A stretch of 64,000 nucleotides of DNA from an uncultured Clostridium sp. (GTDB lineage: Bacteria > Bacillota > Clostridia > TANB77 > CAG-508). The stretch's first letter is position 1. Every line of letters starts with the position of its first letter. A program made the position numbers and the translations under genes. The notes beneath the pieces are model-generated. The model ran no database searches and had not been told where the DNA came from. It worked only from the letters and a program-made list of their open reading frames with translations. The DNA lies in the NCBI GenBank assembly GCA_946548575.1, contig CAMNPT010000001.1, positions 48,282 through 112,281 on the forward strand. Reading direction: 5' to 3'. Positions 37,928 to 49,443 of the stretch are shown here, one piece after another.

Positions 37928-38320
37928 TTAGTCAAGGTTTAACAACTCTTTTATTCTAGTATTTTGTTTTGTTAAATACAAATATCCAATTAATGCTTCA
38001 AATGCTGTTGCATACATATATGTTTGTACATCACAATTTTTAGGTAAATGATGATTTTCTGTATTTCTACCTCTTCTTACAATATCTTTTTCTTCTTGTG
38101 TTAGGTTATTTTGAATCTTTTTTAAAAGTTCTGCTTGTGCAGATGCTTTAACATATTTTATTGTCTCTATATGTAACTTATGAGGTTTGAGTTTTGTTTC
38201 ATTTATTAATTTTGTTCTTACATACAATTCATATACAGAATCTCCAACATAAGCCCATGTTAATGGTGACAACATATTTACTTCTTGTTCATTTTTTTCT
38301 ATATTTATAATATCTTCCAA
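37928..38320 (-). CDS. mrnC: Mini-ribonuclease 3 (Mini-III, YazC)
   Basis: RNase III-like signature PLTWAYVGDSVYELYVR; 130 aa. Confidence 0.8.
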   Translation of the reverse strand: MEDIINIEKNEQEVNMLSPLTWAYVGDSVYELYVRTKLINETKLKPHKLHIETIKYVKASAQAELLKKIQNNLTQEEKDIVRRGRNTENHHLPKNCDVQTYMYATAFEALIGYLYLTKQNTRIKELLNLD

Positions 38321-38321
38321 T

Positions 38322-39248
38322 TTATTCTCCTTTTTGCTCTATTGTAATTTTTCCTAATCTTCCATTTTTAAATTCATCTAGTATTATCCTTGCTGTTTTC
38401 TCTTCATCTATATTTCCACCTGATACTATGCATCCTCTTTTTCTTCCTATTTCAAGCATTATCTCATATATGTTAAAATTTTCTGGTTGTTCTTGATTTA
38501 GTGTTTGCTCAATATATTCTGGTGTTAAACCGTATCTTTCACAAATATTCTTTCTGTAATTTTCTAATAAAAATTTTAACAATTGATATGCTATTTCTGT
38601 TCTTTGTAATATATTTTCTTTTATGGTTCCTGTAAAAGCTAGATTTAAACCTACTTCTTCACTTTCAAACTTTGGCCATAATATTCCTGGTGTATCTAAT
38701 AATTCTATTTTCTCATTTATTCTTATCCATTGTTTTTGTTTTGTTACACCTGGTCTATTTCCAACTTCTGCTGTTGTTCTTTTTGAAATACGATTAATAA
38801 AAGATGATTTTCCTACATTTGGTATTCCAAGAACCATTGCTCTAATTTTTCTTCCTTTACGACCTTTATCTGATTGTTTTTGCATATCATCTTCCATTAT
38901 TTTTTCTATTTCTAAAATACATTTATCTATTCCTTTTCCAGAATTTGAATCTACTAAAACTGCTGATATTCCATGTTTATAGAAATAATCTATCCATTTT
39001 GAATTTTGTCTTTCATCTGCTAAATCACTTTTGTTTAATACAATTACTCTTTTTTTATTTTTAGTTAAATTTAATATATCTGGATTTCTGCTTGATATTG
39101 GTATTCTTGCGTCTAATAACTCTATTATAATATCTACTATTTTTAAATCTTGTTCTATTTGTCTTCTAGTTTTTGCCATATGTCCTGGATACCAGTTAAG
39201 GTTGATTTTGTGATAACCATTATCTTCAATTCTACTCATTTTTTTCAC
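38322..39248 (-). CDS. rbgA: ribosome biogenesis GTPase A (YlqF)
   Basis: circularly permuted GTPase: WYPGHMAK, LNKSDL, GIPNVGKSS, DTPG; 308 aa. Confidence 0.85.
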   Translation of the reverse strand: MKKMSRIEDNGYHKINLNWYPGHMAKTRRQIEQDLKIVDIIIELLDARIPISSRNPDILNLTKNKKRVIVLNKSDLADERQNSKWIDYFYKHGISAVLVDSNSGKGIDKCILEIEKIMEDDMQKQSDKGRKGRKIRAMVLGIPNVGKSSFINRISKRTTAEVGNRPGVTKQKQWIRINEKIELLDTPGILWPKFESEEVGLNLAFTGTIKENILQRTEIAYQLLKFLLENYRKNICERYGLTPEYIEQTLNQEQPENFNIYEIMLEIGRKRGCIVSGGNIDEEKTARIILDEFKNGRLGKITIEQKGE

Positions 39249-39255
39249 TTCCTAT

Positions 39256-39756
39256 CTATATTTCATAATAATATATGTTTTCAGGTAGACTTAATCTTTT
39301 ATATATTCCGTCTTTAATATATTTTCCACCAATATGTTTATAAAACTCATTAGATGGGTTTCCTTTAAGACATGCTATAATCATCTTGTCACATCTTAAT
39401 TCTTTTAGTTCTCTTATCGCTTCTTCTACTAATCGTCTTCCAAATCCATTTCCTTTATATTTTTTTATTATATATAAAGCAAAAATTTCTCCACAGTTTT
39501 TAAATTGTTCATCCTCAGATACTCCAAAATTCACAAATCCAACAACTTCATTATCTATTTCTAAAACAAATTGATGATTGTTATTTACATCAAATTTCTC
39601 ATATGAAATTTGAGCTCTTTCATTTTCATTATTTTTTAATTCTTCTAAAAACCAATCTGGAACAATACCCTTATATGTTTCATTCCAAGCTATTGTTACA
39701 ACATGAGCTACATCTTTGCAATCTTTCTGTTCTCTTTTTCTTATTAAATAGTTCAT
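39256..39756 (-). CDS. GNAT family N-acetyltransferase
   Basis: acetyl-CoA binding motif GNGFGRRLV; 166 aa. Confidence 0.7.
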   Translation of the reverse strand: MNYLIRKREQKDCKDVAHVVTIAWNETYKGIVPDWFLEELKNNENERAQISYEKFDVNNNHQFVLEIDNEVVGFVNFGVSEDEQFKNCGEIFALYIIKKYKGNGFGRRLVEEAIRELKELRCDKMIIACLKGNPSNEFYKHIGGKYIKDGIYKRLSLPENIYYYEI

Positions 39757-39768
39757 ATAACTTCTCCT

Positions 39769-41028
39769 TTACTTGAATTTTATATTTACTTCTCCGTTTT
39801 GAGATATGATTATACTATCTATGTTTTTTAATAAAATATCTCTTGTTAACGTATCAGTTTTACTTCTTTTAAATTTTCTATTTAATTCATTCAACACAAC
39901 TTCAGTTAATTTATCTTTTCTAATTGAATGGCTTGTACAAGAACCATTTCTTACATAAGATGTACAATGATAATATTCATAATTCTTTACTTTTCTTAAT
40001 GTAAATGAACTTCCACAATTTGCACACTTTAAAAAGCTATAAAATAAATCTTTTTCCTTATTATTTCTAGCAGCTTTATTTTTGTTTAGTATTTCTTGTA
40101 CTTGAGCAAACTTTTCTTTTGATATAATTGGCTTGTGATGATTTTCAGTTATTATCCATTCATCTTTATTTGTTGTAATTAGTTTATGAGTGCGATAATT
40201 TTCTACCTTCTTCTTTCCTTGAATTAAATCTCCTGTGTATACTCTATTTTGAAGTATTACATTAATCATTTTTACATTCCACTTTTTGTCTACTTGTATA
40301 TTGTTATTTTTTGTTTTATATAAAGCAGGTGTTAAAACATTTTTCTTATTTAATTCATTAGCGATTTCATTTGCTGTTTTTCCTTCTATTATATCATTAA
40401 ATATTTTAATAACATTCTTCGATGCTTCTTCATCTATTATTAATTTATGTTTATCTTTTGGATTTTTTAAATATCCATATGTAGCAAAAGTTCCAATAAA
40501 CTCTCCATTTAATCTTTTAGTTAGCAATGCACTTTTAACCTTTTTAGAAATATCTTTTGCATAGGCATCGTTTAATAAATTCTTAAAAGGAACAATAAGG
40601 TTGTCCATTGAATCCGGATTTTCAAAACTATCTATATTTTCTATTACTGATATAAATCTAATATTTAATGCAGGAAAGATATTTTCAAAATACATGTCCG
40701 CTTCTATGTGACTTCTTGCAAATCTAGATAAATCTTTTACAATTATACAATTAAACTTTTTATTTTTCATATCTTGTAATAGTCTTCTAAATCCTGGTCT
40801 ATTAAAATTAGTACCACTATACCCATCATCAATATAGTAATCTACTAATTGTAAATCACTTTTATTAACAATATATTGTTCTATTAATTCTCTTTGATTA
40901 ACTATACTATTTGATTCCATATTTTCATTATCTTCTTTTGACAATCTTAAATATGCTGCTACATTCCAATTTGATATTTTAATCACTCCTATAATTTTAA
41001 TATAAACATATAATGTCGTATACCTCAA
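39769..41028 (-). CDS. large serine recombinase (resolvase domain + recombinase domain + zinc ribbon)
   Basis: N-terminal catalytic region VAAYLRLSKEDNE...NQRELIEQY, resolvase core, C-terminal CANCGS...YYHCTSY zinc ribbon; start codon uncertain (probably a non-ATG start near 40975). Confidence 0.8.
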   Translation of the reverse strand: MRYTTLYVYIKIIGVIKISNWNVAAYLRLSKEDNENMESNSIVNQRELIEQYIVNKSDLQLVDYYIDDGYSGTNFNRPGFRRLLQDMKNKKFNCIIVKDLSRFARSHIEADMYFENIFPALNIRFISVIENIDSFENPDSMDNLIVPFKNLLNDAYAKDISKKVKSALLTKRLNGEFIGTFATYGYLKNPKDKHKLIIDEEASKNVIKIFNDIIEGKTANEIANELNKKNVLTPALYKTKNNNIQVDKKWNVKMINVILQNRVYTGDLIQGKKKVENYRTHKLITTNKDEWIITENHHKPIISKEKFAQVQEILNKNKAARNNKEKDLFYSFLKCANCGSSFTLRKVKNYEYYHCTSYVRNGSCTSHSIRKDKLTEVVLNELNRKFKRSKTDTLTRDILLKNIDSIIISQNGEVNIKFK

Positions 41029-41092
41029 TCAGCCTTAAACCTATAGTTTACTTTTTCAGTCATTATTCTAATAAAATGAGTAACTAATAATT

Positions 41093-41548
41093 TTATTTTT
41101 TAAAATGTTTATTCATTAGTTTTTCTATTAACTCTTCTTTTAATTTCTCATTTTCAGTATTTTCCACTAATTTAATTATTTTTTCTTCATTTTCATGGTA
41201 AGATAAATCTTTAAAATAATTTTGTTTATTTTCATTTGATTTGTTAAATATGTATAAAATTGTAGCAGATAATAAATCTATAAAACAACCACAAATTGTT
41301 CCAGCGACCAATGTTTCTGTAATTTTTAATGCATAAATAACAAAACTCGCTATTATTAATAAAATTCCAACCCATATCATCCAGATAGCATTTTTTACTA
41401 TCATTTTATTTTGTTGTATTTCTTCTTTATGATACTCTTCCGAACTTAGTTTAGGTGAGCCTTTTATTTTTACCCTATTGCTTTCTTTGGTTAATTTATT
41501 GTTATCCGATATTTCAAATTTATTTTGTTTCGCCATTATCTTCCTCAC
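41093..41548 (-). CDS. hypothetical membrane protein
   Basis: 151 aa, two central TM helices, charged termini. Confidence 0.4.
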   Translation of the reverse strand: MRKIMAKQNKFEISDNNKLTKESNRVKIKGSPKLSSEEYHKEEIQQNKMIVKNAIWMIWVGILLIIASFVIYALKITETLVAGTICGCFIDLLSATILYIFNKSNENKQNYFKDLSYHENEEKIIKLVENTENEKLKEELIEKLMNKHFKK

Positions 41549-41807
41549 TTTTTATTTCGTTTTCAAGATCATCTAAACATCCTAATATAAGTCCATTTAT
41601 AAAAACTGTATTTCCACAATTTCTACATGATACGGGTATTAATGGTTGAAATTTTCCTCCTAATTTCATTTCCTTTTTTTCTCCAACTTCTATCGGTGTA
41701 ACAATTGAAGTATCCACTGTCCATTCCGCTGATTGGCAATATGGACAATTAACTCCTTTCCATTTTTCATTTAATTTTTTTAATAATATTTCATTATTTA
41801 TTTTCAT
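41520..41807 (-). CDS. hypothetical zinc-ribbon protein
   Basis: two CxxC pairs (CPYCQS...CRNCGN); 95 aa; overlaps the downstream membrane-protein gene. Confidence 0.45.
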   Translation of the reverse strand: MKINNEILLKKLNEKWKGVNCPYCQSAEWTVDTSIVTPIEVGEKKEMKLGGKFQPLIPVSCRNCGNTVFINGLILGCLDDLENEIKSEEDNGETK

Positions 41808-41861
41808 AAGCCTCTCCTTATCATTTATTGAATTTTATTTTTTAATTTTATAAACACTAAA

Positions 41862-42404
41862 TTATTTTATCCATTCTTCTTTTAATAATCCAGTTATATA
41901 TTCATCTTCATAGTTACCTGTTGCTTGTGATATAATTTTTTTTCTTCTTATACCTTCATCTTTGTATCCAAACCTTAATTGCATTTTGTGTGATTTTTCA
42001 TTTTCTTTAAAGTAACCATTTTCCAATCTTCTAAGTCCAAGTTCTTCAAAAGCATATTTAATTCTCGCCCCAAATGCTTCTGTTCCATAACCTTTTCCTT
42101 GATATTTTTCGTTTAACCAAATCCCACCACCTGCTGTACCATGTACATTGCTTATATTAGTTAATTGAGTCCCACCTATTACCTTGTTTTCTTCTTTTAG
42201 AACAATAGCAAAGTTATATAAATTGTTTTCAATAGATTTAGTTATAAAACTTTTAGCATCTTCTTCTGTATATGGATATGGTACTTGTGCTAGCCACTTT
42301 GTTACATTTAAGTTATTTAATCCTTCAACTACATCATTAACATCATCTAATCTCCATTTTCTTAATATTAATCTATCTGTTTCTATTATTATATCTTCAT
42401 TCAT
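41862..42404 (-). CDS. GNAT family N-acetyltransferase (RimJ/RimL-like)
   Basis: QGKGYGTEA acetyl-CoA motif; 4 nt overlap (ATGA) with the upstream DinD-like gene. Confidence 0.7.
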   Translation of the reverse strand: MNEDIIIETDRLILRKWRLDDVNDVVEGLNNLNVTKWLAQVPYPYTEEDAKSFITKSIENNLYNFAIVLKEENKVIGGTQLTNISNVHGTAGGGIWLNEKYQGKGYGTEAFGARIKYAFEELGLRRLENGYFKENEKSHKMQLRFGYKDEGIRRKKIISQATGNYEDEYITGLLKEEWIK

Positions 42405-43270
42405 CTTTTTTTACCTTCTTTATCTCCGATTTGTTTTTGTTCATCTATGTACTTATAGTTTAAACTATTACTTTTAGATATAGCAGACTTTTTAGTTTCT
42501 TTTTCGTATAAGTCTTTTGCTCCTTTTGCAACTCCTCCACCACGCTTAGCTACATTCAAGTTTTCTTTTAATCCCTGTGGATGCTCTTCTCTTGCTATAT
42601 CTCTTGTTGCAATCTCACCTATATTAGTAAGTGCCACTTCTATATCTGTCATATTATCTCTTAAAGATTCCTTCCTAAGGCCTTTTAATTTTTTATATTC
42701 GCTAGCCTTCATTCCAGACCAACCTTTGTATATTTCATTTGTTAAAAGTGCATATTCAATTGGCTTAGTTATTCCTCCCTCTTTCCAAACATCAGTAAGT
42801 TTAAATCTATCTACAATACCATTTAATCTTGCTTTTATCCATTCATCACTATATCCTTTATTACGATAATATTGTACGGCTCTATTAACTGCAATTTCTG
42901 GATCAAATACTTCATCAATTCTCTCACTACCTAAATTTGCAAGCCAAACTTTAAAAGGTTCTGCTTTGCTACTTGGAACAGATTCAATAAGTCTAAAAAT
43001 ATCACGAGTTGTCATTGCATCTCTTAAACGCATTTTTCCGTCTGGAGCTAACATTTTCAACTGACTACAATTTGTAGTCACTTCACTACCTTCTTTTTTT
43101 AATCTATTTTTTAAAACAGACCAATATTTTCTTGGTTTAGGACTATCTGTTAAAGCATTTATAACATCCACAACACTAAAAAAATATTCTTCTTTTTCAC
43201 TATCCCATACACTTCTAATTTCTTTATCTTCAAATAAATTTGAAATCGTTTCTATTTTGTTATTATCCAT
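42401..43270 (-). CDS. Bro-N domain protein, DNA-damage-inducible protein D (DinD)-like, paralog 1
   Basis: start MDNNKIETISNLF with AGGAGG RBS; Bro-N-like N-terminus (IRSVWDSEKEEYFFSVVDVINAL); C-terminal half near-identical to paralog 2. Confidence 0.6.
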   Translation of the reverse strand: MDNNKIETISNLFEDKEIRSVWDSEKEEYFFSVVDVINALTDSPKPRKYWSVLKNRLKKEGSEVTTNCSQLKMLAPDGKMRLRDAMTTRDIFRLIESVPSSKAEPFKVWLANLGSERIDEVFDPEIAVNRAVQYYRNKGYSDEWIKARLNGIVDRFKLTDVWKEGGITKPIEYALLTNEIYKGWSGMKASEYKKLKGLRKESLRDNMTDIEVALTNIGEIATRDIAREEHPQGLKENLNVAKRGGGVAKGAKDLYEKETKKSAISKSNSLNYKYIDEQKQIGDKEGKKR

Positions 43271-43305
43271 AAAATTCCTCCTTTCTAATTTATTTATTAC
43301 GCATA

Positions 43306-43324
43306 TCCCGTCGAATTCGACGGA
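43306..43324. promoter_or_regulatory. perfect palindrome CCCGTCGAATTCGACGG(A), copy 1, ~40 nt upstream of DinD-like paralog 1
   Basis: read directly; same motif at 43838 and 44905. Confidence 0.6.
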
Positions 43325-43331
43325 TTTAGTA

Positions 43332-43805
43332 TTAATCTTCAATCATATCTATCATTCTCATATGATATCCATTTCTTTCATAAAATTTTATTGCATTTTC
43401 ATTATATCCAAATACTGCAATCATTATTTTTTCACAGCCAATACTCTTTAAATAATCTCTCATACTTTCTAATAGTTTTTCACCTATATGCTTACCTCTG
43501 TATTCTTTTGAAACTACCAATTCTGTTATTCTTCCTCTTTTAGGTGCTTTAAAATCGAACCTAATTTCTTCATCGTTATTTACTATTCCAACTACTAGTC
43601 CAACAATTTTTTCATTTTCTTTAAATAGTAATATTTTTCCATTACATTTTTTAACCTCTTCAATAGTTTTTTCAAAGTATTTTTCTCTATAATCATCTCC
43701 AACAATATTATATCCTTCTTTGTCAATATCTGATAAATATTGTTGCAATTCTAGTAATAAATCTTTTATTTGTTCATTATAGTTTGGACTATATTCTATT
43801 ATCAT
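43332..43805 (-). CDS. GNAT family N-acetyltransferase
   Basis: RGKHIGEKLL acetyl-CoA motif; 157 aa. Confidence 0.7.
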   Translation of the reverse strand: MIIEYSPNYNEQIKDLLLELQQYLSDIDKEGYNIVGDDYREKYFEKTIEEVKKCNGKILLFKENEKIVGLVVGIVNNDEEIRFDFKAPKRGRITELVVSKEYRGKHIGEKLLESMRDYLKSIGCEKIMIAVFGYNENAIKFYERNGYHMRMIDMIED

Positions 43806-43837
43806 TATAATAAATCCTTTCCTTTTCGTTTTTTAAT

Positions 43838-43855
43838 CCATCGAATTCGACGGGA
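43838..43855. promoter_or_regulatory. palindrome copy 2 (CCATCGAATTCGACGGG), ~35 nt upstream of GNAT 43332..43805
   Basis: read directly. Confidence 0.55.
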
Positions 43856-43904
43856 TATTATCTATTTATATCAAATCACGAAAGATGTTAAGTTTATTAA
43901 GTGT

Positions 43905-43994
43905 TCATTTTTGAACACTTTTAGGAAGTTTTGCATTTGCCCATTCTTCACAGTTGATGTTTGTACTTGGCAACTTTTCTTTTTTATCTTCCAT
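43905..43994 (-). CDS. small ORF A (29 aa, MEDKKEKLPSTNINCEEWANAKLPKSVQK), member of a 3-copy small-protein family
   Basis: RBS AGGAAAG; paralogs at 45582..45701 and 46318..46437 differ mainly at codon third positions. Confidence 0.5.
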   Translation of the reverse strand: MEDKKEKLPSTNINCEEWANAKLPKSVQK

Positions 43995-43995
43995 A

Positions 43996-44868
43996 TTACT
44001 CACTTTCCTTTTTATTTCTATTATCAATTTGTTTTTGTTCATCTATGTACTCATAATTTAAACTATTGCTTTTAGATATAGCAGATTTTTTTGTTTCTTT
44101 TTCATACAAATCTTTTGCTCCTTTTGCAACTCCTCCACCACGCTTAGCAACATTTAAATTTTCTTTTAATCCCTGTGGATGTTCTTCTCTTGCTATATCT
44201 CTTGTTGCAATTTCTCCTATATTTGTGAGAGCGACTTCTATATCTGTCATATTATCTCTTAATGATTCTTTTCTAAGTCCTTTTAGTTTCTTATATTCGC
44301 TAGCCTTCATTCCAGACCAACCTTTATATATTTCATTTGTCAAAAGCGCATATTCATAATTATTTGTAATACCATTTTCTTTCCAAGTATCTGTCAATTT
44401 CTTTCTATTTAATATTCCATTTAATCTTTCTGAAATCCATTTATCACTATATCCTCTGTTTCTGTAATAATCTATCGCACGATTAACCGCTATCTCTGGA
44501 TCGAATACTTCATCTACTCTCTCTTTTCCAAGTGACGCTAACCACATTTTAAATGGTTCCGCTTTCGGAGATGAAACTGATTCAATAAGTCTAAAAATAC
44601 CTTTTGTATCCAAAGTGTCTGTTTCTCTCATTTTTCCATCTTGTGCTTTCATTTTCAACTGCACGATATTTTCGTGCAGTTCACTTCCTTCAGATTTTAA
44701 CTTTCTTTTTAAATCACTCCAATAATTTCTTGGAATATTACTATCTGTTAATGCACTTATAACATCTACGACACTAAAAAAATATTCTTCTTTTTCAGAA
44801 TCCCATACACTTCTAATTTCCTTATCTTCAAAGAGATTTGAAATCGTTTCTATTTTGTTATTATCCAT
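43996..44868 (-). CDS. Bro-N domain protein, DinD-like, paralog 2
   Basis: start MDNNKIETISNLF with AGGAGG RBS; 3' ~300 nt nearly identical at DNA level to paralog 1. Confidence 0.6.
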   Translation of the reverse strand: MDNNKIETISNLFEDKEIRSVWDSEKEEYFFSVVDVISALTDSNIPRNYWSDLKRKLKSEGSELHENIVQLKMKAQDGKMRETDTLDTKGIFRLIESVSSPKAEPFKMWLASLGKERVDEVFDPEIAVNRAIDYYRNRGYSDKWISERLNGILNRKKLTDTWKENGITNNYEYALLTNEIYKGWSGMKASEYKKLKGLRKESLRDNMTDIEVALTNIGEIATRDIAREEHPQGLKENLNVAKRGGGVAKGAKDLYEKETKKSAISKSNSLNYEYIDEQKQIDNRNKKESE

Positions 44869-44904
44869 AAAATTCCTCCTTTCTAATTTATTCATTACGC
44901 ATAT

Positions 44905-44921
44905 CCCGTCGAATTCGACAG
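44905..44921. promoter_or_regulatory. palindrome copy 3 (CCCGTCGAATTCGACAG), upstream of DinD-like paralog 2
   Basis: read directly; flanks identical to copy 1. Confidence 0.55.
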
Positions 44922-44992
44922 ATTTATATTAATATCAAACATTCTTTCTCTAATTTTGTTTTCAAAGGTCTCGGATTCGATACCTTTAAAAT

Positions 44993-45136
44993 TTATATTA
45001 CGTTTTTATCTATCCAATTTAAAAAATCTTTACTTGCATTTTTTATTTCATAATATGATATTTCTGCAACTTCATAGTCATGTATTTGTTTAATTTCATT
45101 TTCTATTTCTTTCTTATCACAAAGTGTTGTTGCCAT
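44993..45136 (-). CDS. possible small ORF (47 aa) immediately downstream of HD gene
   Basis: ATG 7 nt after the HD stop with no clear RBS; weak. Confidence 0.25.
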   Translation of the reverse strand: MATTLCDKKEIENEIKQIHDYEVAEISYYEIKNASKDFLNWIDKNVI

Positions 45137-45143
45137 AATAAAT

Positions 45144-45566
45144 TTATCCATTATAATTACCTCTCAATTTTTCTATTAAAATTTTTGCATCACAATATGT
45201 TTTTGATTCTTCTCCATATCTATTTTTTATATCTTCTAATCTTTTATCATATCCCACATCATTACCATATTTATCAATTTGCATATCTGCTTTATTTAAT
45301 ATTTCCAAAAATAATGATGTATATTCTGAATTTATATCTCCATGATAATAAACTTCTTTCCAATATTTATAATTATTTCTTTTTAGTATATCTCCACCTA
45401 TATGTGCGTGTTTTAAATTATCTCCATATTCATCATATCCAATATCATGATTAAATCCTAACACAAGTAAATCTTGTAATTCAAATTCATTCAAATTATA
45501 TCTTCTTCCAATTTCTATCATTTTTCTTGCAACTGCTATTGAATGTTTTAGTCTATCTTCATCCAT
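45144..45566 (-). CDS. HD superfamily hydrolase (small, 140 aa)
   Basis: HSIAVARK...GFNHDIGY...HAHIGGDIL HD motifs. Confidence 0.6.
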   Translation of the reverse strand: MDEDRLKHSIAVARKMIEIGRRYNLNEFELQDLLVLGFNHDIGYDEYGDNLKHAHIGGDILKRNNYKYWKEVYYHGDINSEYTSLFLEILNKADMQIDKYGNDVGYDKRLEDIKNRYGEESKTYCDAKILIEKLRGNYNG

Positions 45567-45581
45567 ATATTCTCTCCAATA

Positions 45582-45701
45582 TTATATTTTCATCAAAATA
45601 TGTAATATATTTAAAGCAATAATGTCTGTATTTTCAATGTTTTTAGGAAGTTTTTCATAAATCCGTCTCTCCCAGTTGATGTTTGTTTTATTCTCCTCCA
45701 T
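45582..45701 (-). CDS. small ORF B (39 aa, MEENKTNINWERRIYEKLPKNIENTDIIALNILHILMKI)
   Basis: RBS GAGGAAG; conserved TNINW/C...IY.KLPK.IEN core shared with ORFs A and C. Confidence 0.5.
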   Translation of the reverse strand: MEENKTNINWERRIYEKLPKNIENTDIIALNILHILMKI

Positions 45702-45794
45702 CTATATCACTTCCTCATTTTTACAATTCAATACTTTCTATATTCTAACATAAAAACAAGTGATTTTCAAATAATCACTTGCTTTTCATGATTT

Positions 45795-46244
45795 TTAACC
45801 TTTATATCCTCTTAAAAAACTATCTAATTCTTTTTCATTATTAAAAATGTTTTCAAATATATTATATAAAGTATCTGTTGCCTCATATTCACCGATAGCA
45901 TAGCATTTTTTTCCTAATCCGTATGCTATTCCTGATTCTATATGTGCGGCTTTTCCAGCTGGTAATACTAGTAATAAATTTCTAGAACTCTTTTCCCCTT
46001 CTAAATCTTGATTAAACAAATTTAAAACAACATCACTTTTTAGTCCTAAGGATTCAAATTCTGCTTGTTTTTCTTCCGGAGTTTGATTTTCATTACCATA
46101 TCCCCAACTGTCTTCATTTTTTAAGAAACAATAATAAGAAATATTATATTTATCAAATATATCACATATTTTTAAAATATTTTCCTTATTTCTAGCTCTT
46201 CCTGCTATAAAAAATTCGTATTTTTCCATAATCTTTTCCTCCAT
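45795..46244 (-). CDS. nucleoside 2-deoxyribosyltransferase-like protein (likely start MEKYEF at 46229)
   Basis: FFIAG...LLVLPAGKAAHIESGIAYGLGKKCYAIG resembles the PF05014 fold; RBS GGAGG. Confidence 0.5.
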   Translation of the reverse strand: MEEKIMEKYEFFIAGRARNKENILKICDIFDKYNISYYCFLKNEDSWGYGNENQTPEEKQAEFESLGLKSDVVLNLFNQDLEGEKSSRNLLLVLPAGKAAHIESGIAYGLGKKCYAIGEYEATDTLYNIFENIFNNEKELDSFLRGYKG

Positions 46245-46317
46245 AAATAATTTTTAATTTCTATTCAGAATTTCACAGTTATACAATTAAATATAAGTAG
46301 TTTTACATCAAATACGA

Positions 46318-46437
46318 AAAAATCTCGATGTAAAAAATTGAATGTTTTCAATAGTTTCAAGGAACTTTCTATAAATCGTTTTATCGCAGTTAATACTTGT
46401 ACTTGCACAACTTTTTTCATTATTCATTTTATTCACC
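46318..46437 (-). CDS. small ORF C (39 aa, MNNEKSCASTSINCDKTIYRKFLETIENIQFFTSRFFRI)
   Basis: RBS AAGGTGA; third member of the small-protein family. Confidence 0.5.
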
Positions 46438-46540
46438 TTATTTCCTTTTAAACTCTATTTTTATTTGCACCAATACGTTCAATATATTTTTTCAGATTCT
46501 ATTCCTAAATTCATATTTGTTTTCACTTCATAATTTTAAA

Positions 46541-46612
46541 AAAAATATAGAATATATGTATTTTTATTCTATATTTTATCCTATACTTTATTCTATACTT
46601 TGTCAATATTTT
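46541..46612. repeat. iteron-like cluster of TATAGAAT / TCTATACTTT repeats including an 8 bp inverted pair
   Basis: TATAGAATATATGTATTTTTATTCTATA then TCCTATACTTTATTCTATACTTTG; at the distal end of the co-oriented cargo array. Confidence 0.5.
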
Positions 46613-46638
46613 GTTAAAACAAATGTCATAAATCCATT

Positions 46639-47139
46639 TTATAATGTCCTATAATTATTTTTGTCAGCTCTATCATCTAATTTTCTATCAAATTGCTCAT
46701 TTGCATAAAACCAATCAGTTTTTTTATCTTTTGGGTGTGCTTTTCTTCCTTTATCTGCTAACATATCAAACAAAACTGCAATTGGTATAATCATTCCAAT
46801 TACTGACATAAATAAATTAAGATAAGTTCCTATTAAGTCTACATCACCTTCAACTGCAGCTAATAAAACTTGAACATTATTATATATATCTACTCCAAAA
46901 TACATTCCATAAGCTAGTAGATAAATTAAAGCTCCTACTAATTTTCTTTTTACTACTAAAACCATACATGCTAATGTAACAAATAGTAATCCTATTTCCA
47001 TTTCTAAATTTAATGGTGTTATTGCAAATTCCATATTCATTTGTGCAGTTACTGCTACCATTATTCTAGAAGCCCAAAATAATATCATAAACATAACTAA
47101 TAAATAAGTTGAGAAATTTTTCATTTGTTTTACCTCCAT
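46639..47139 (-). CDS. hypothetical membrane protein
   Basis: 166 aa, 4 TM helices, charged C-terminus. Confidence 0.4.
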   Translation of the reverse strand: MEVKQMKNFSTYLLVMFMILFWASRIMVAVTAQMNMEFAITPLNLEMEIGLLFVTLACMVLVVKRKLVGALIYLLAYGMYFGVDIYNNVQVLLAAVEGDVDLIGTYLNLFMSVIGMIIPIAVLFDMLADKGRKAHPKDKKTDWFYANEQFDRKLDDRADKNNYRTL

Positions 47140-47199
47140 TTCAATATGTATAAAGGTGAAGTTTTATCTCCACCTTTATTAGTATTTTTATTCTTTTTA

Positions 47200-47526
47200 T
47201 TAATCTACAAAGTCAAAATCATCTTTAAATTTTTCTTTAAATATTTCAAATACTTTATTTAGTATTTCTTCATCTTCAATACTAACATAAGATTCTTCTT
47301 CAACATTGTCACCTTCAATGTCTTCAATTTTTAGTATAACTACCTCTCCTTCTTCTTCCTCTCCTTCTTTTGTAATAGGTAATAATACTACATATTCTTC
47401 GTCATCTAATTCAATAAGATCTAAAAATTCAAATTGTACTTCATTTCCATCCTCATCATTCAATACTACAATATTGTTTAAATCCTCGCTTTCGTAATTT
47501 TCATCCATAATTTTTTCTCCTTTCAT
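47200..47526 (-). CDS. DUF1292 family acidic protein (YrzB-like)
   Basis: acidic 108 aa with ...VVLNDEDGNEVQFEFLD...EYVVLLP signature; conserved downstream of ruvX. Confidence 0.65.
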   Translation of the reverse strand: MKGEKIMDENYESEDLNNIVVLNDEDGNEVQFEFLDLIELDDEEYVVLLPITKEGEEEEGEVVILKIEDIEGDNVEEESYVSIEDEEILNKVFEIFKEKFKDDFDFVD

Positions 47527-47564
47527 TTTTTTATATTATTTATTTTTTATATAATATAGTATTT

Positions 47565-47999
47565 TTAATTATTTTGTAATGTATTTTTTTGTTTATTTAA
47601 ATATGTTTCTAAAATATATACTGCAGATATAGTATCTACTATATTTTTCTTTTTATTCTTATTAATATTTAAAAAGTTCATTGTTTTATGTGCTTCAACA
47701 GTTGTTAATCTTTCATCCATAGTTTCAATTTTTATTTTATTATATTTACATTTTAATTTATGAATAAATTGTTCTGTAATTTCTACTCTTTTTGATATTG
47801 TTCCATTCATATTTAAAGGTTTACCAACTACAATTGTTTCTACCTCATATTTTTGTAAAATTTCGTCTAATCTGCGTAAAACTATTTTATCAGAACCATT
47901 TCTATTTATAGTTTCTAATCCTTGTGCTGTAATATTCAACTCATCTGTTATAGCAACTCCAACTCGACTATCACCATAATCAATTCCTAATATTCTCAT
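47565..47999 (-). CDS. ruvX: Holliday junction resolvase-like RuvX (YqgF)
   Basis: MRILGIDYGDSRVGVAITD N-terminus; 144 aa. Confidence 0.85.
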   Translation of the reverse strand: MRILGIDYGDSRVGVAITDELNITAQGLETINRNGSDKIVLRRLDEILQKYEVETIVVGKPLNMNGTISKRVEITEQFIHKLKCKYNKIKIETMDERLTTVEAHKTMNFLNINKNKKKNIVDTISAVYILETYLNKQKNTLQNN

Positions 48000-48001
48000 T
48001 T

Positions 48002-48256
48002 CTATTCTTCAATTCCTATATATTTTTTTACCATTTTTTCTAGTAATTCATCTCTTTCTATTGTTCTTATTTTGTTTCTTGCATCATTATGGCTAGTTAT
48101 ATAAGTTGGGTCTCCTGATAATATATATCCAACAATTTGATTAATTGGATTATATCCTTTTTCAACTAAAGCATCATATACTTCTTTTAGAATTTCCTGA
48201 CATTTTTCATTTTCCTCTCTGTCAACTTTAAAACGCATAGTTTTATCAAATTCCAT
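48002..48256 (-). CDS. ireB: IreB family regulatory phosphoprotein (UPF0297)
   Basis: 84 aa, ...[35 protein letters not shown] signature; conserved partner of ruvX. Confidence 0.75.
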
Positions 48257-48309
48257 ACTATTTCACTCCTCTTTTAACCAAAATGAACACATCTTAATTG
48301 GTTTTATTT

Positions 48310-49443
48310 TTATATATTTGTAATATCACTTTCAGATATCTCTGCATTGTCTAAATATTCTTCTAGCTTCTTCAATATTTCCTCTAATCCAGTACCTTTG
48401 TAATATGATGATATAACAAAATTTAATCTTGGTACTGCAATTTCTTTTAAATCTTTTTCTGTTTTCTTTTTTATCCTTACACCTAGATTATATTGTTCTA
48501 TTTCCTCTGCTGTTAAACTAATTTTCATCCCTTCAATATTTGTTTTTATATCATTTAAGAAATCTCCTACACCTTCTGTTTCAACTCCAGAAAATGCAAT
48601 TACAAATTTTGGTCCCATATATCTAACAAATACATATTCATCAGATAAACTTGTTTTTACATATTCACTTATTTCTTTAATTACTTTGTTTCCTAGCTCT
48701 CTAGAGAAATTATTATTTATTTGTTGTATGTTTGTTATTTTAAACATACATATTGTAGATACCGTATACTGGTCAATGACTTTTTTTCCTTCACCATATA
48801 AATATTCTTCTGAATATAAACCTGTAAATAGGTCCTTTCTAACAATTGACTCTAATGTTTTTTGATGTACTACTGTTTTTAATACAGATACAATATTTTC
48901 TTTAATAACTTCTAAAACCGTTATATCCACATTATCAAAATCGTGAGGTGTTCCACTTTCCATAATCCAGTATCCAATATATACATTATCTATATATAAA
49001 GGAAAGAACACTGCTGATTTAGCTCTTCCAAATTCCATTTTTTGATATGGAAGTCTTTCACTTTCACTATTTACAGTTACATATTTAGGTGTTGCTGTTT
49101 CTATACTGTCTTTAAACATTTCAAGTTCATGTAACCCTTTTAATGAGTTCCAGTGCTTTTCATCTACATTAGATGCCTTTATTTCATATTCTGCACCATT
49201 AAATACCACTATAGTTGAATATTTTATTTCATATCTTTCTATTAAAACATCATTAATTTTTTTAATTTTTTCATCAACCGTAGATGTTTCACCAATAGCA
49301 TTTATAAAATCTTGGACAACTGATAGATTTGTTATTTGTTGATTTGTATTTCGTAATTTTTGTATATTTCTGTGAATTTTTATATTATATATAACTAATC
49401 CTAATATAATTAAAACTAGTATTACAACTACTGCTATTATCAC
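48310..49443 (-). CDS. membrane-anchored protein with degenerate GGDEF-like domain
   Basis: N-terminal TM; C-terminal diguanylate-cyclase-like fold in which RYMGPKF replaces GGDEF. Confidence 0.5.
   Translation of the reverse strand: MIIAVVVILVLIILGLVIYNIKIHRNIQKLRNTNQQITNLSVVQDFINAIGETSTVDEKIKKINDVLIERYEIKYSTIVVFNGAEYEIKASNVDEKHWNSLKGLHELEMFKDSIETATPKYVTVNSESERLPYQKMEFGRAKSAVFFPLYIDNVYIGYWIMESGTPHDFDNVDITVLEVIKENIVSVLKTVVHQKTLESIVRKDLFTGLYSEEYLYGEGKKVIDQYTVSTICMFKITNIQQINNNFSRELGNKVIKEISEYVKTSLSDEYVFVRYMGPKFVIAFSGVETEGVGDFLNDIKTNIEGMKISLTAEEIEQYNLGVRIKKKTEKDLKEIAVPRLNFVISSYYKGTGLEEILKKLEEYLDNAEISESDITNI

Follow-up and report, generated by a model that had tools for sequence, protein, structure and literature searches.

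Repeated short ORFs upstream of rbgA are integration junctions in a probable tandem array of small serine-recombinase units

An island of accessory genes was found upstream of rbgA, the gene of a ribosome-biogenesis GTPase, in a 64-kb stretch of DNA from an uncultured Clostridium sp. (the window, meaning the whole stretch). From 47.5 kb to 38.3 kb all genes lie on the minus strand, and the island contains a large serine recombinase (LSR) and three similar short open reading frames (small ORFs 1 to 3). A preliminary description of the region had seen co-oriented accessory genes between core genes, and indeed all genes it listed are present on the minus strand. It had also taken the small ORFs for a family of small proteins, each partnering an enzyme in a toxin-antitoxin (TA)-like or defence module. 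This was not upheld: a related contig, L003, showed the small ORFs to be integration junctions. The limits of the island, placed before at 46640-39769, are 46386-39193 from crossover to crossover. With a G+C content of uniformly 22-33% over the region, the island is not marked by composition. The genes are given below in transcription order.

47526-47200, minus strand, DUF1292, core gene
47139-46639, minus strand, membrane protein of 166 aa
46427-46308, minus strand, small ORF 1, 39 aa
46244-45795, minus strand, 149-aa ORF, no family assigned
45701-45582, minus strand, small ORF 2, 39 aa
45566-45144, minus strand, HD protein (Pfam HD, E = 3e-7)
45151-44993, minus strand, CutA1 fragment of 52 aa (CutA1 with a 156-nt in-frame internal deletion)
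44895-43996, minus strand, Bro-N protein 2 (copy 2; Pfam Bro-N; PADLOC candidate PDC-S13, E about 1e-113)
43994-43905, minus strand, small ORF 3, 29 aa
43805-43332, minus strand, GNAT2
43270-42401, minus strand, Bro-N protein 1 (copy 1; Pfam Bro-N; PADLOC candidate PDC-S13, E about 1e-113)
42404-41862, minus strand, GNAT1
41807-41520, minus strand, Zn-ribbon ORF, 95 aa
41548-41093, minus strand, ORF with two transmembrane (TM) segments (2-TM ORF), 151 aa (weak matches to CyanoTRADDas_TM and PycTM)
40986-39769, minus strand, LSR (ORF as called, 41028-39769)
39756-39256, minus strand, GNAT166
39248-38322, minus strand, rbgA, the target gene
next after rbgA in transcription order, minus strand, mrnC

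The presence of three similar ORFs of 29-39 aa upstream of enzyme genes was confirmed. A repeat search of the window gave a three-copy family of 56 nt that spans all three, and the motif ACAARYATYAACTG has three exact matches in the 64 kb (46387, 45673 and 43951), all on the minus strand. When one mismatch was allowed, four matches were counted against 0.41 expected from shuffled sequences. An nhmmer profile of the junctions found no site in the window beyond the three known.

Four metagenome contigs were retrieved by looking up the exact protein of small ORF 2. Three of them match the window at 99.9-100% identity, and the structure is therefore not an assembly artefact. The fourth, L003, is from the same species, with 98-100% identity in the common stretches, and lacks window positions 43950-39194. 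The flanks of this missing 4.76-kb block are 99-100% identical to the window. The rbgA gene of L003 reads MEDKKEKLPSTNINW YPGHMAKTRR..., its start MEDKKEKLPSTNINWYPGHM consisting of the N-terminus of small ORF 3 and the RbgA body. In the window, small ORF 3 reads MEDKKEKLPSTNIN CEEWANAKLPKSVQK followed by a stop, and rbgA reads MKKMSRIEDNGYHKINLNW YPGHMAKTRR.... Since rbgA of L003 carries the N-terminus of small ORF 3, the latter is the former 5' end of rbgA, severed by an insertion of 4758 nt that brought its own ribosome-binding site (RBS), ATG and 18-19 codons.

The L003 site is 100% identical to attL in the left arm and 37% in the right, and 44% identical to attR in the left arm and 100% in the right. 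The attL/attR pair is precise, with a matching empty site (attB) and no duplication beyond the short core AACTG, which is the sole sequence common to both element ends and the empty site. To have only AACTG in common, with no target duplication, is as expected of a serine recombinase. The comparison with related genomes that had been proposed in the preliminary description thus revealed a variable island with recombinase-associated junctions.

From crossover to crossover the island comprises three units. In the list below, P and P' are the two arms of the site that an incoming unit would carry.

46357..46417, minus strand, junction 1, attL-type: native or oldest rbgA 5' end (ATG at 46427, ...STSIN) and P' arm of unit A, meeting at AACTG; G at 46387
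45673..46386, minus strand, unit A, 714 nt, without recombinase; one 149-aa ORF
45643..45703, minus strand, junction 2, attL-type: P arm of unit A and P' arm of unit B, meeting at AACTG; G at 45673
43951..45672, minus strand, unit B, 1722 nt, without recombinase; HD, deleted CutA1 and Bro-N/PDC-S13 copy 2
43921..43981, minus strand, junction 3, attL of unit C: P arm of unit B and P' arm of type x, meeting at AACTG; G at 43951
39193..43950, minus strand, unit C, 4758 nt, carrying the LSR; missing as one block from L003
39163..39223, minus strand, attR: P arm (..AATGGTTATCACAAAATCAACCTTAACTG, G at 39193) and rbgA body (GTATCCAGGACATATGGC = W-YPGHMA)

Small ORF 1 (46427-46308) reads through junction 1, ahead of which lies a promoter-like TTGACA-17-TAGGAT (46606-46578). 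The 3' end of unit A contains a terminator hairpin (45781-45757), a promoter-like TTGAAA-17-TGnTAGAAT (45770-45742), an RBS, an ATG and the codons ...KTNINW, a set that makes up a substitute rbgA start. The 3' end of unit B provides the rbgA start MEDKKEKLPSTNINW. In unit C, the order is GNAT2, Bro-N copy 1, GNAT1, Zn-ribbon, 2-TM, LSR, GNAT166 and the rbgA RBS and start MKKMSRIEDNGYHKINLNW, so that the first 18-19 codons of the window rbgA come from this unit. Its P arm at attR is conserved in L005-L009, L028 and L031, loci retrieved with the LSR. Junctions 1 and 2 have both halves in common with junction 3. Units A and B are bounded by junctions on both sides and contain no LSR match, the form that accretion models give to a cis-mobilisable element (CIME).

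The three window junctions and 35 others, from 16 further loci, are built alike. The left arm has the layout ATG..AAAGTTt.CC....ATCAACTG; it is of the rbgA type, with RBS, ATG, ...(S/N)IN and AACTG. The layout of the right arm is G..A..ACGaATTTAt..AAAC..., with G..A..ACGgATTTAT..AAAACTTCC... in the window junctions. Both have an outer motif, AGTT on the left and AACT on the right, about 22-25 nt from the crossover, resulting in a dyad of about 50 bp. Dyads of this size are typical of LSR sites. The left arms of attB, attR and attL follow one consensus with equal spacing. A 6-nt shift between the attB-type and attP-type left arms was considered and rejected, the left arms of other clades being equally spaced.

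Well beyond a normal 50-bp LSR site, 27 junctions, those of L005-L033 included, have a motif TTTTTACATaTTT or ATCTTTCGTrAT at a fixed, ungapped distance (+70 to +82) from the crossover. Its copies in the window are at 46317-46305, 45603-45591 and 43881-43869 (minus strand). A site for an accessory protein and an oriT-like sequence are possibilities; a sigma-70 promoter was rejected by eye, as the motif is too near the downstream RBS in several cassettes.

A genome scan with the LSR yielded 30 loci in uncultured gut or rumen Clostridia, Bacilli and Mollicutes-like metagenome-assembled genomes (MAGs). In L005-L013, L016, L017, L028 and L031 an LSR homologue of 49-93% identity stands directly upstream of an RbgA of only 40-68% identity. 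An LSR directly upstream of rbgA was also found in L040 and in all contigs obtained with two further homologues (L042-L057), amounting to more than 20 independent genomic contexts. That the LSR stands before RbgA proteins more divergent than itself indicates target specificity for rbgA and horizontal spread of the LSR family.

The nhmmer profile of the three junctions, iterated on the loci fetched with the LSR, located 38 junction-type sites, all on the strand of the LSR and rbgA. Six are in L001 and L003, of the window's own species, and one of these (L003 2693) is the rbgA start itself. Consecutive junctions were found in L009 (five), in L010 (four, with two LSRs) and in L006, L014, L015, L017 and L033 (three each). 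A census over 17 loci counted 18 units without an LSR (332-2938 nt, median about 1 kb) and 17 bearing one (2.3-4.9 kb, median 3.5 kb). None of the units contained a gene for a relaxase, a coupling protein or replication. In L005, L007 and L008 the stretch from the core TM gene to the first junction showed no extra junctions even at E <= 50, and the genes located there are probably native.

Two complete LSR units in tandem are present in both L010 (5052-11817) and L040 (507-8190). The two LSRs of L040 are about 46% identical, the rbgA-adjacent one being frameshifted; one and the same rbgA site is therefore used by recombinases that are only distantly related.

In every left arm of the junction-type sites, an in-frame ATG lies 8-20 codons ahead of the Trp codon. 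Past the crossover the frame ends after 0, 1, 5, 13, 15, 21, 26 or 30 codons in the 35 junctions from 16 other loci. The conservation lies in the DNA and not in a protein; no such protein family exists. A Pfam search with the small ORFs gave no match even at E <= 10. The preliminary description had made conservation of these ORFs a touchstone of its proposal, and at the protein level they are not conserved, as the frame past the crossover varies. In other genomes the junctions precede unrelated cargo, including RhuM, KilA-N, hydrolases, OLD-family ATPases and LSRs. Each small ORF is thus an attL-type junction, in which the stranded RBS, ATG and 8-20 codons of rbgA are fused at AACTG to a P' arm.

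The units also occur in other combinations, and in shared cassettes the homology breaks exactly at AACTG. The cassette with the 149-aa ORF is present in L009 (4992-5581) between different neighbours, with 87.7% nucleotide identity over the ORF. In L039 the HD-CutA1 unit follows an LSR P arm, with a right arm 93% and a left arm 54% identical to that of the window. An LSR P arm also precedes the GNAT2 unit of L038 and L040, where the right arm is 99-100% and the left arm 48-54% identical; the L038 copy is a cassette by itself, with a junction on either side. Unit C is polymorphic in natural populations. In L037, from the sample of the empty-site contig L003, it is followed by another cassette in place of rbgA. 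In L005 a core of unit C, of 94.7% identity, lacks GNAT2 and GNAT166. LSR fragments or frameshifts were seen in L028 and L040.

Unit B decays reciprocally in the two strains. CutA1 is intact in L003 (104 aa, 1363-1677), and the window copy has lost 156 nt between 22-nt direct repeats; HD is intact in the window and split by a frameshift in L003. The two Bro-N genes are mosaic, with ends 89-92% identical. The overlapping Zn-ribbon and 2-TM ORFs (41807-41093) are 99-100% identical to their copies in L005, the adjacent LSR 93%. GNAT166 (39763-39242), placed after the LSR stop codon and ahead of the P arm, is absent from the otherwise collinear elements of L005-L009, L028 and L031. Its RBS is the one that belongs to rbgA in those elements, and downstream of GNAT166 comes a new RBS, AGGAAGTGA. 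Without a junction site, GNAT166 was therefore inserted by another route.

The LSR was recognised correctly in the preliminary description, with matches to the Resolvase (PF00239, 8.8e-22), Recombinase (PF07508, 3.8e-22) and Zn_ribbon_recom (PF13408, 6.9e-15) domains. TnpX and SPbeta SprA/YokA were matched in the PDB. The start is probably the GTG at 40986, giving a protein of about 405 aa; a protein search found 7970 homologues at E <= 1e-20, about 400-410 aa long. The alignment to the 545-aa SPbeta SprA stops at about residue 394, where the coiled coil of SprA begins. In the AlphaFold (AF2) model (pLDDT 62 overall, locally 80-90 over residues 310-402) only the helices H354-368 and H379-385 follow the zinc ribbon, making up about 30 residues at the position of the coiled coil, versus 60-75 residues in other LSRs. 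According to the model, this short LSR with a reduced coiled-coil motif would represent a variant and give no ground for exclusion from the LSR elements. The LSR is the only gene conserved across the elements.

The cargo of the window consists of three GNATs, two Bro-N/PDC-S13 proteins, an HD protein, a damaged CutA1, the pair of Zn-ribbon and 2-TM ORFs and one orphan ORF. This agrees largely with the preliminary description, in which the 52-aa CutA1 ORF did not figure. The third GNAT (39756-39256) lies just beyond its range, the HD hydrolase has a Pfam match, and both ORFs of the Zn-ribbon/membrane pair are present. For the proteins called DinD-like, Bro-N was retained on the Pfam match and DinD was not (NCBIfam 18.8 bits, cut-off 242). 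The name nucleoside 2-deoxyribosyltransferase-like was dropped for the 149-aa ORF, for which no Pfam, NCBIfam or PDB match was found at the sequence level; it has no similarity (BLASTP E = 1.8) to the genuine PF15891 (Nuc_deoxyri_tr2) cargo protein of L010.

The GNATs score best as RimI/RimJ/PseH-like, with no DUF1778 or ribbon-helix-helix (RHH) partner. In type II TA systems with GNAT toxins (AtaT/TacT/ItaT) the upstream gene is that of a DNA-binding antitoxin; the small ORFs upstream here are RbgA N-termini with unconserved C-termini. PADLOC returned the candidate PDC-S13 for both Bro-N proteins (E about 1e-113) and otherwise only weak PycTM and PDC-M11A matches, and the assignment of the cargo to TA or defence systems was not adopted on these candidate or weak matches. 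No mention of PDC-S13 was found in the literature searched. The Zn-ribbon and 2-TM ORFs could be a small membrane-effector defence pair. Related arrays carry RhuM (six), KilA-N (four), Bro-N, serine hydrolases, Schlafen/AlbA_2, SWIM, a trypsin-like peptidase, AAA_21 with an OLD-TOPRIM ATPase, ADP-ribosylglycohydrolase, DUF6602, a GATase/C26 peptidase, a glyoxalase and the genuine Nuc_deoxyri_tr2 protein. Such an assortment of defence-like and detoxification genes is usual on small mobile elements, and nothing ties the cargo functionally to the junction ORFs.

A near-perfect palindrome of 24 nt, ATATCCCGTCGAATTCGACGGATT (core CCGTCGAATTCGACGG), was noted upstream of Bro-N copy 1 (43303-43326), GNAT2 (43835-43858) and Bro-N copy 2 (44901-44924). 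GNAT2 is thereby bracketed by 24-nt inverted repeats, 508 nt apart. A symmetrically altered palindrome, CCGTCAAATTTGACG, lies upstream of the Bro-N gene of L005, and the core is also found within the KilA-N genes of L006, L007, L008 and L028. The palindrome may serve as an operator, form a hairpin or act as a secondary site of recombination.

Taken together, the region is very probably a tandem array of three small integrative units, produced by repeated LSR integration at the 5' end of rbgA. The observations behind this reading are the anatomy of the junctions, the empty site, the conserved target and the cassette breakpoints. The RbgA of Bacillus subtilis starts with MTIQWFPGHM, and the residues before the Trp are accordingly an extension. 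An incoming unit would carry a site made up of a P arm and a P' arm, of which the P arm, with RBS, ATG and about 8-20 codons ending in ...INW, would mimic this dispensable N-terminal extension. Recombination of P|P' with the chromosomal site would take place inside AACTG, at the Trp codon ahead of the conserved YPGHM. The P arm would become the new start of rbgA and the essential gene would stay whole, while the earlier start, joined to the P' arm, would be left behind at the distal end of the unit as the attL junction that was taken for a small protein. The next integration would again occur beside rbgA, so that the newest unit is proximal and older junctions persist. Units A and B may have decayed from complete elements, or they may be cassettes that naturally have no LSR and were moved, like CIMEs, in cis or in trans. 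The co-orientation would permit read-through of cargo and rbgA, and the unit ends carry promoter-like sites of their own.

Several points weigh against this explanation. Unit C acquired GNAT166 and GNAT2 without any junction site, so part of the shuffling is not site-specific; homologous recombination adds to it. Units A and B contain no LSR remnants, so a decayed element and a native LSR-less cassette look alike. An excised circle (attP, in a closed or terminally redundant contig) was not found among the contigs with identical or related LSRs, and a single metagenome scan for the pattern of a P arm running into sequence other than rbgA returned four contigs, all tandem chromosomal junctions. 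No candidate for a recombination directionality factor is conserved across the elements. Catalysis by the LSR and the exact crossover dinucleotide are derived from sequence only.

A stronger version of the same explanation, rather than its opposite, would have the short LSR integrate, excise and reshuffle genuine LSR-less cassettes (0.3-3 kb, mostly of one gene) at the rbgA start, somewhat as in an integron. The left arms would then be equivalent, attL resembling attP and attR resembling attB, no directionality factor would be required, and each cassette would carry a surrogate rbgA start. This is regarded as possible, on the doubtful side. LSR-less units are about as frequent as LSR units in the census (18 versus 17) and have no LSR remnants, and in L037, L038, L039 and L041 LSR-less cassettes lie between the LSR unit and rbgA and so arrived after the LSR unit. 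A freely reversible reaction, which would explain this proximal position, is allowed though not proved by the predicted short C-terminus of the LSR, the lack of any other conserved gene and the common consensus and spacing of the attB, attR and attL left arms. However, single-cassette circles were not seen, decay of the LSR gene is demonstrable (L028, L040), and the same orders could result from composite excision followed by re-integration, a known route of cis-mobilisation. Overall confidence in the LSR model is low, and the equivalence of the site types is deduced from the nucleotide sequence.

Two further explanations were considered. A repeated cis-regulatory element of 60-100 nt (a riboswitch, an attenuator or a leader-peptide region) would account for the block of about 100 nt, conserved without gaps, that precedes the first gene of each cassette, and for the fixed +70 to +82 motif, which a recombinase half-site does not explain. 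It is nevertheless a highly improbable reading: RNAalifold found no consensus pairs in 27 junction sequences, the upstream half of the block is rbgA coding sequence, and the downstream genes are mutually unrelated. An Rfam scan of 38000-48500 gave no family at threshold, only two chance-level matches (best E-value 0.75), both outside the repeats. Still less credible is the original proposal that the small ORFs are antitoxin-like or regulatory partners of the downstream enzymes in two-gene modules. Three similar ORFs with a good RBS and ATG do precede three enzymes, translational coupling is conceivable for small ORF 2, whose stop is 13 nt from the HD start, and the Bro-N proteins match a PADLOC defence candidate. 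Yet the conserved N-terminal part is that of RbgA, as seen in L003, and the part past the crossover is conserved as DNA and stops after 0-30 codons. The lack of a family or domain match, the unrelated genes behind the same junctions and the RimI/RimJ type of the GNATs, without DUF1778 or RHH partner, add to a case by which this proposal is largely refuted already.

Outside the island, a 768-aa ORF (49469-51775) upstream of a GGDEF gene was noted. Its middle part is of low complexity, with KRGRGRP repeats and Q/N/Y-rich tracts, and its C-terminal part resembles a ParA/MinD-like ATPase; the contig tables hold no Pfam family for it.

With the small ORFs explained, a false lead is removed, and small-protein-plus-enzyme modules do not stand here for an undescribed TA or defence architecture. 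As a rule for annotation, a series of short ORFs whose N-terminus is that of an essential gene close by is to be read as att scars that delimit units. The element family is resolved to the base pair, and natural attB, attP, attL and attR sequences are available from the loci. Short LSRs whose sites are defined also have a practical interest, as tools for genome integration. The LSR-less single-gene cassettes raise the question of integron-like gene capture by serine recombinases in Firmicutes, and interest would be greater if they were captured in trans. The arrays also form a compact catalogue of candidate genes for defence and detoxification, with Bro-N/PDC-S13, RhuM, KilA-N, OLD-family ATPases, Schlafen/AlbA_2, GNATs and glyoxalase.

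Among known systems, the arrays of the staphylococcal cassette chromosome (SCC), in which Ccr recombinases mobilise tandem SCC-like defence cassettes (PMC11470126), are similar in many respects. SCC/SCCmec and the present array have in common an LSR acting at one site in a housekeeping gene, tandem units, att repeats, recombinase-less beside autonomous units and defence cargo. The SCC recombinases CcrAB/CcrC act at the 3' end of rlmH (orfX), whereas integration here is at the rbgA 5' end, which obliges every unit to bring in an RBS, a start codon and N-terminal codons anew. SCC units measure 20-60 kb, versus 0.3-5 kb here with a single LSR of about 400 aa, and the hosts are staphylococci rather than uncultured gut Clostridia and Bacilli. 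With a CcrB score far below the cut-off (NCBIfam, 109 versus 900 bits) and another target, the island is not a member of SCC.

In the accretion model, integration is followed by decay to an att-flanked unit without integrase (a CIME) and by arrival of a new element at the att site (PMC5704250). These three steps, described for streptococcal integrative and conjugative or mobilisable elements (ICEs and IMEs), fit units A and B plus C, and the decay observed. The classical cases involve tyrosine integrases, the 3' ends of tRNA or protein genes and conjugative or mobilisable elements, whereas the units here have no transfer genes and many LSR-less ones are of single-gene size. Without transfer genes, the island is not an ICE or IME. 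ICEs of the Tn1549 family integrate at the rbgA 5' end in Streptococcus suis (PMC7168690), thus at the same target gene and the same gene end; they are large and conjugative, and the elements here are of 0.7-4.8 kb and have no conjugation module. The ssrA islands of Dehalococcoides, with a CcrB-like serine recombinase (DsiB), are arranged in tandem, some without integration module and proposed to be CIMEs (PMC3146451). They too use a single-copy essential gene and have a repeat of the gene end at each boundary, but differ in their target, the 3' end of an RNA gene, in a six-gene module that includes a second, small serine recombinase, and in their far larger size.

In the literature searched, no serine-recombinase cassette array at rbgA in Clostridia was found described, and the miniature LSR elements of uncultured gut Clostridia, Bacilli and Mollicutes-like MAGs apparently form a widespread, undescribed family. 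With integrons they share co-oriented, mostly single-gene cassettes, recombination sites in between, a nearby site-specific recombinase and diverse accessory or defence cargo. Integrons rely on the tyrosine recombinase IntI and on single-strand folds of attC, as opposed to a serine recombinase and dyads of about 50 bp without a consensus fold. With its serine recombinase and without folded attC sites, the island is not an integron; here the recombinase itself rides on a mobile unit, and insertion takes place inside the coding start of an essential gene.

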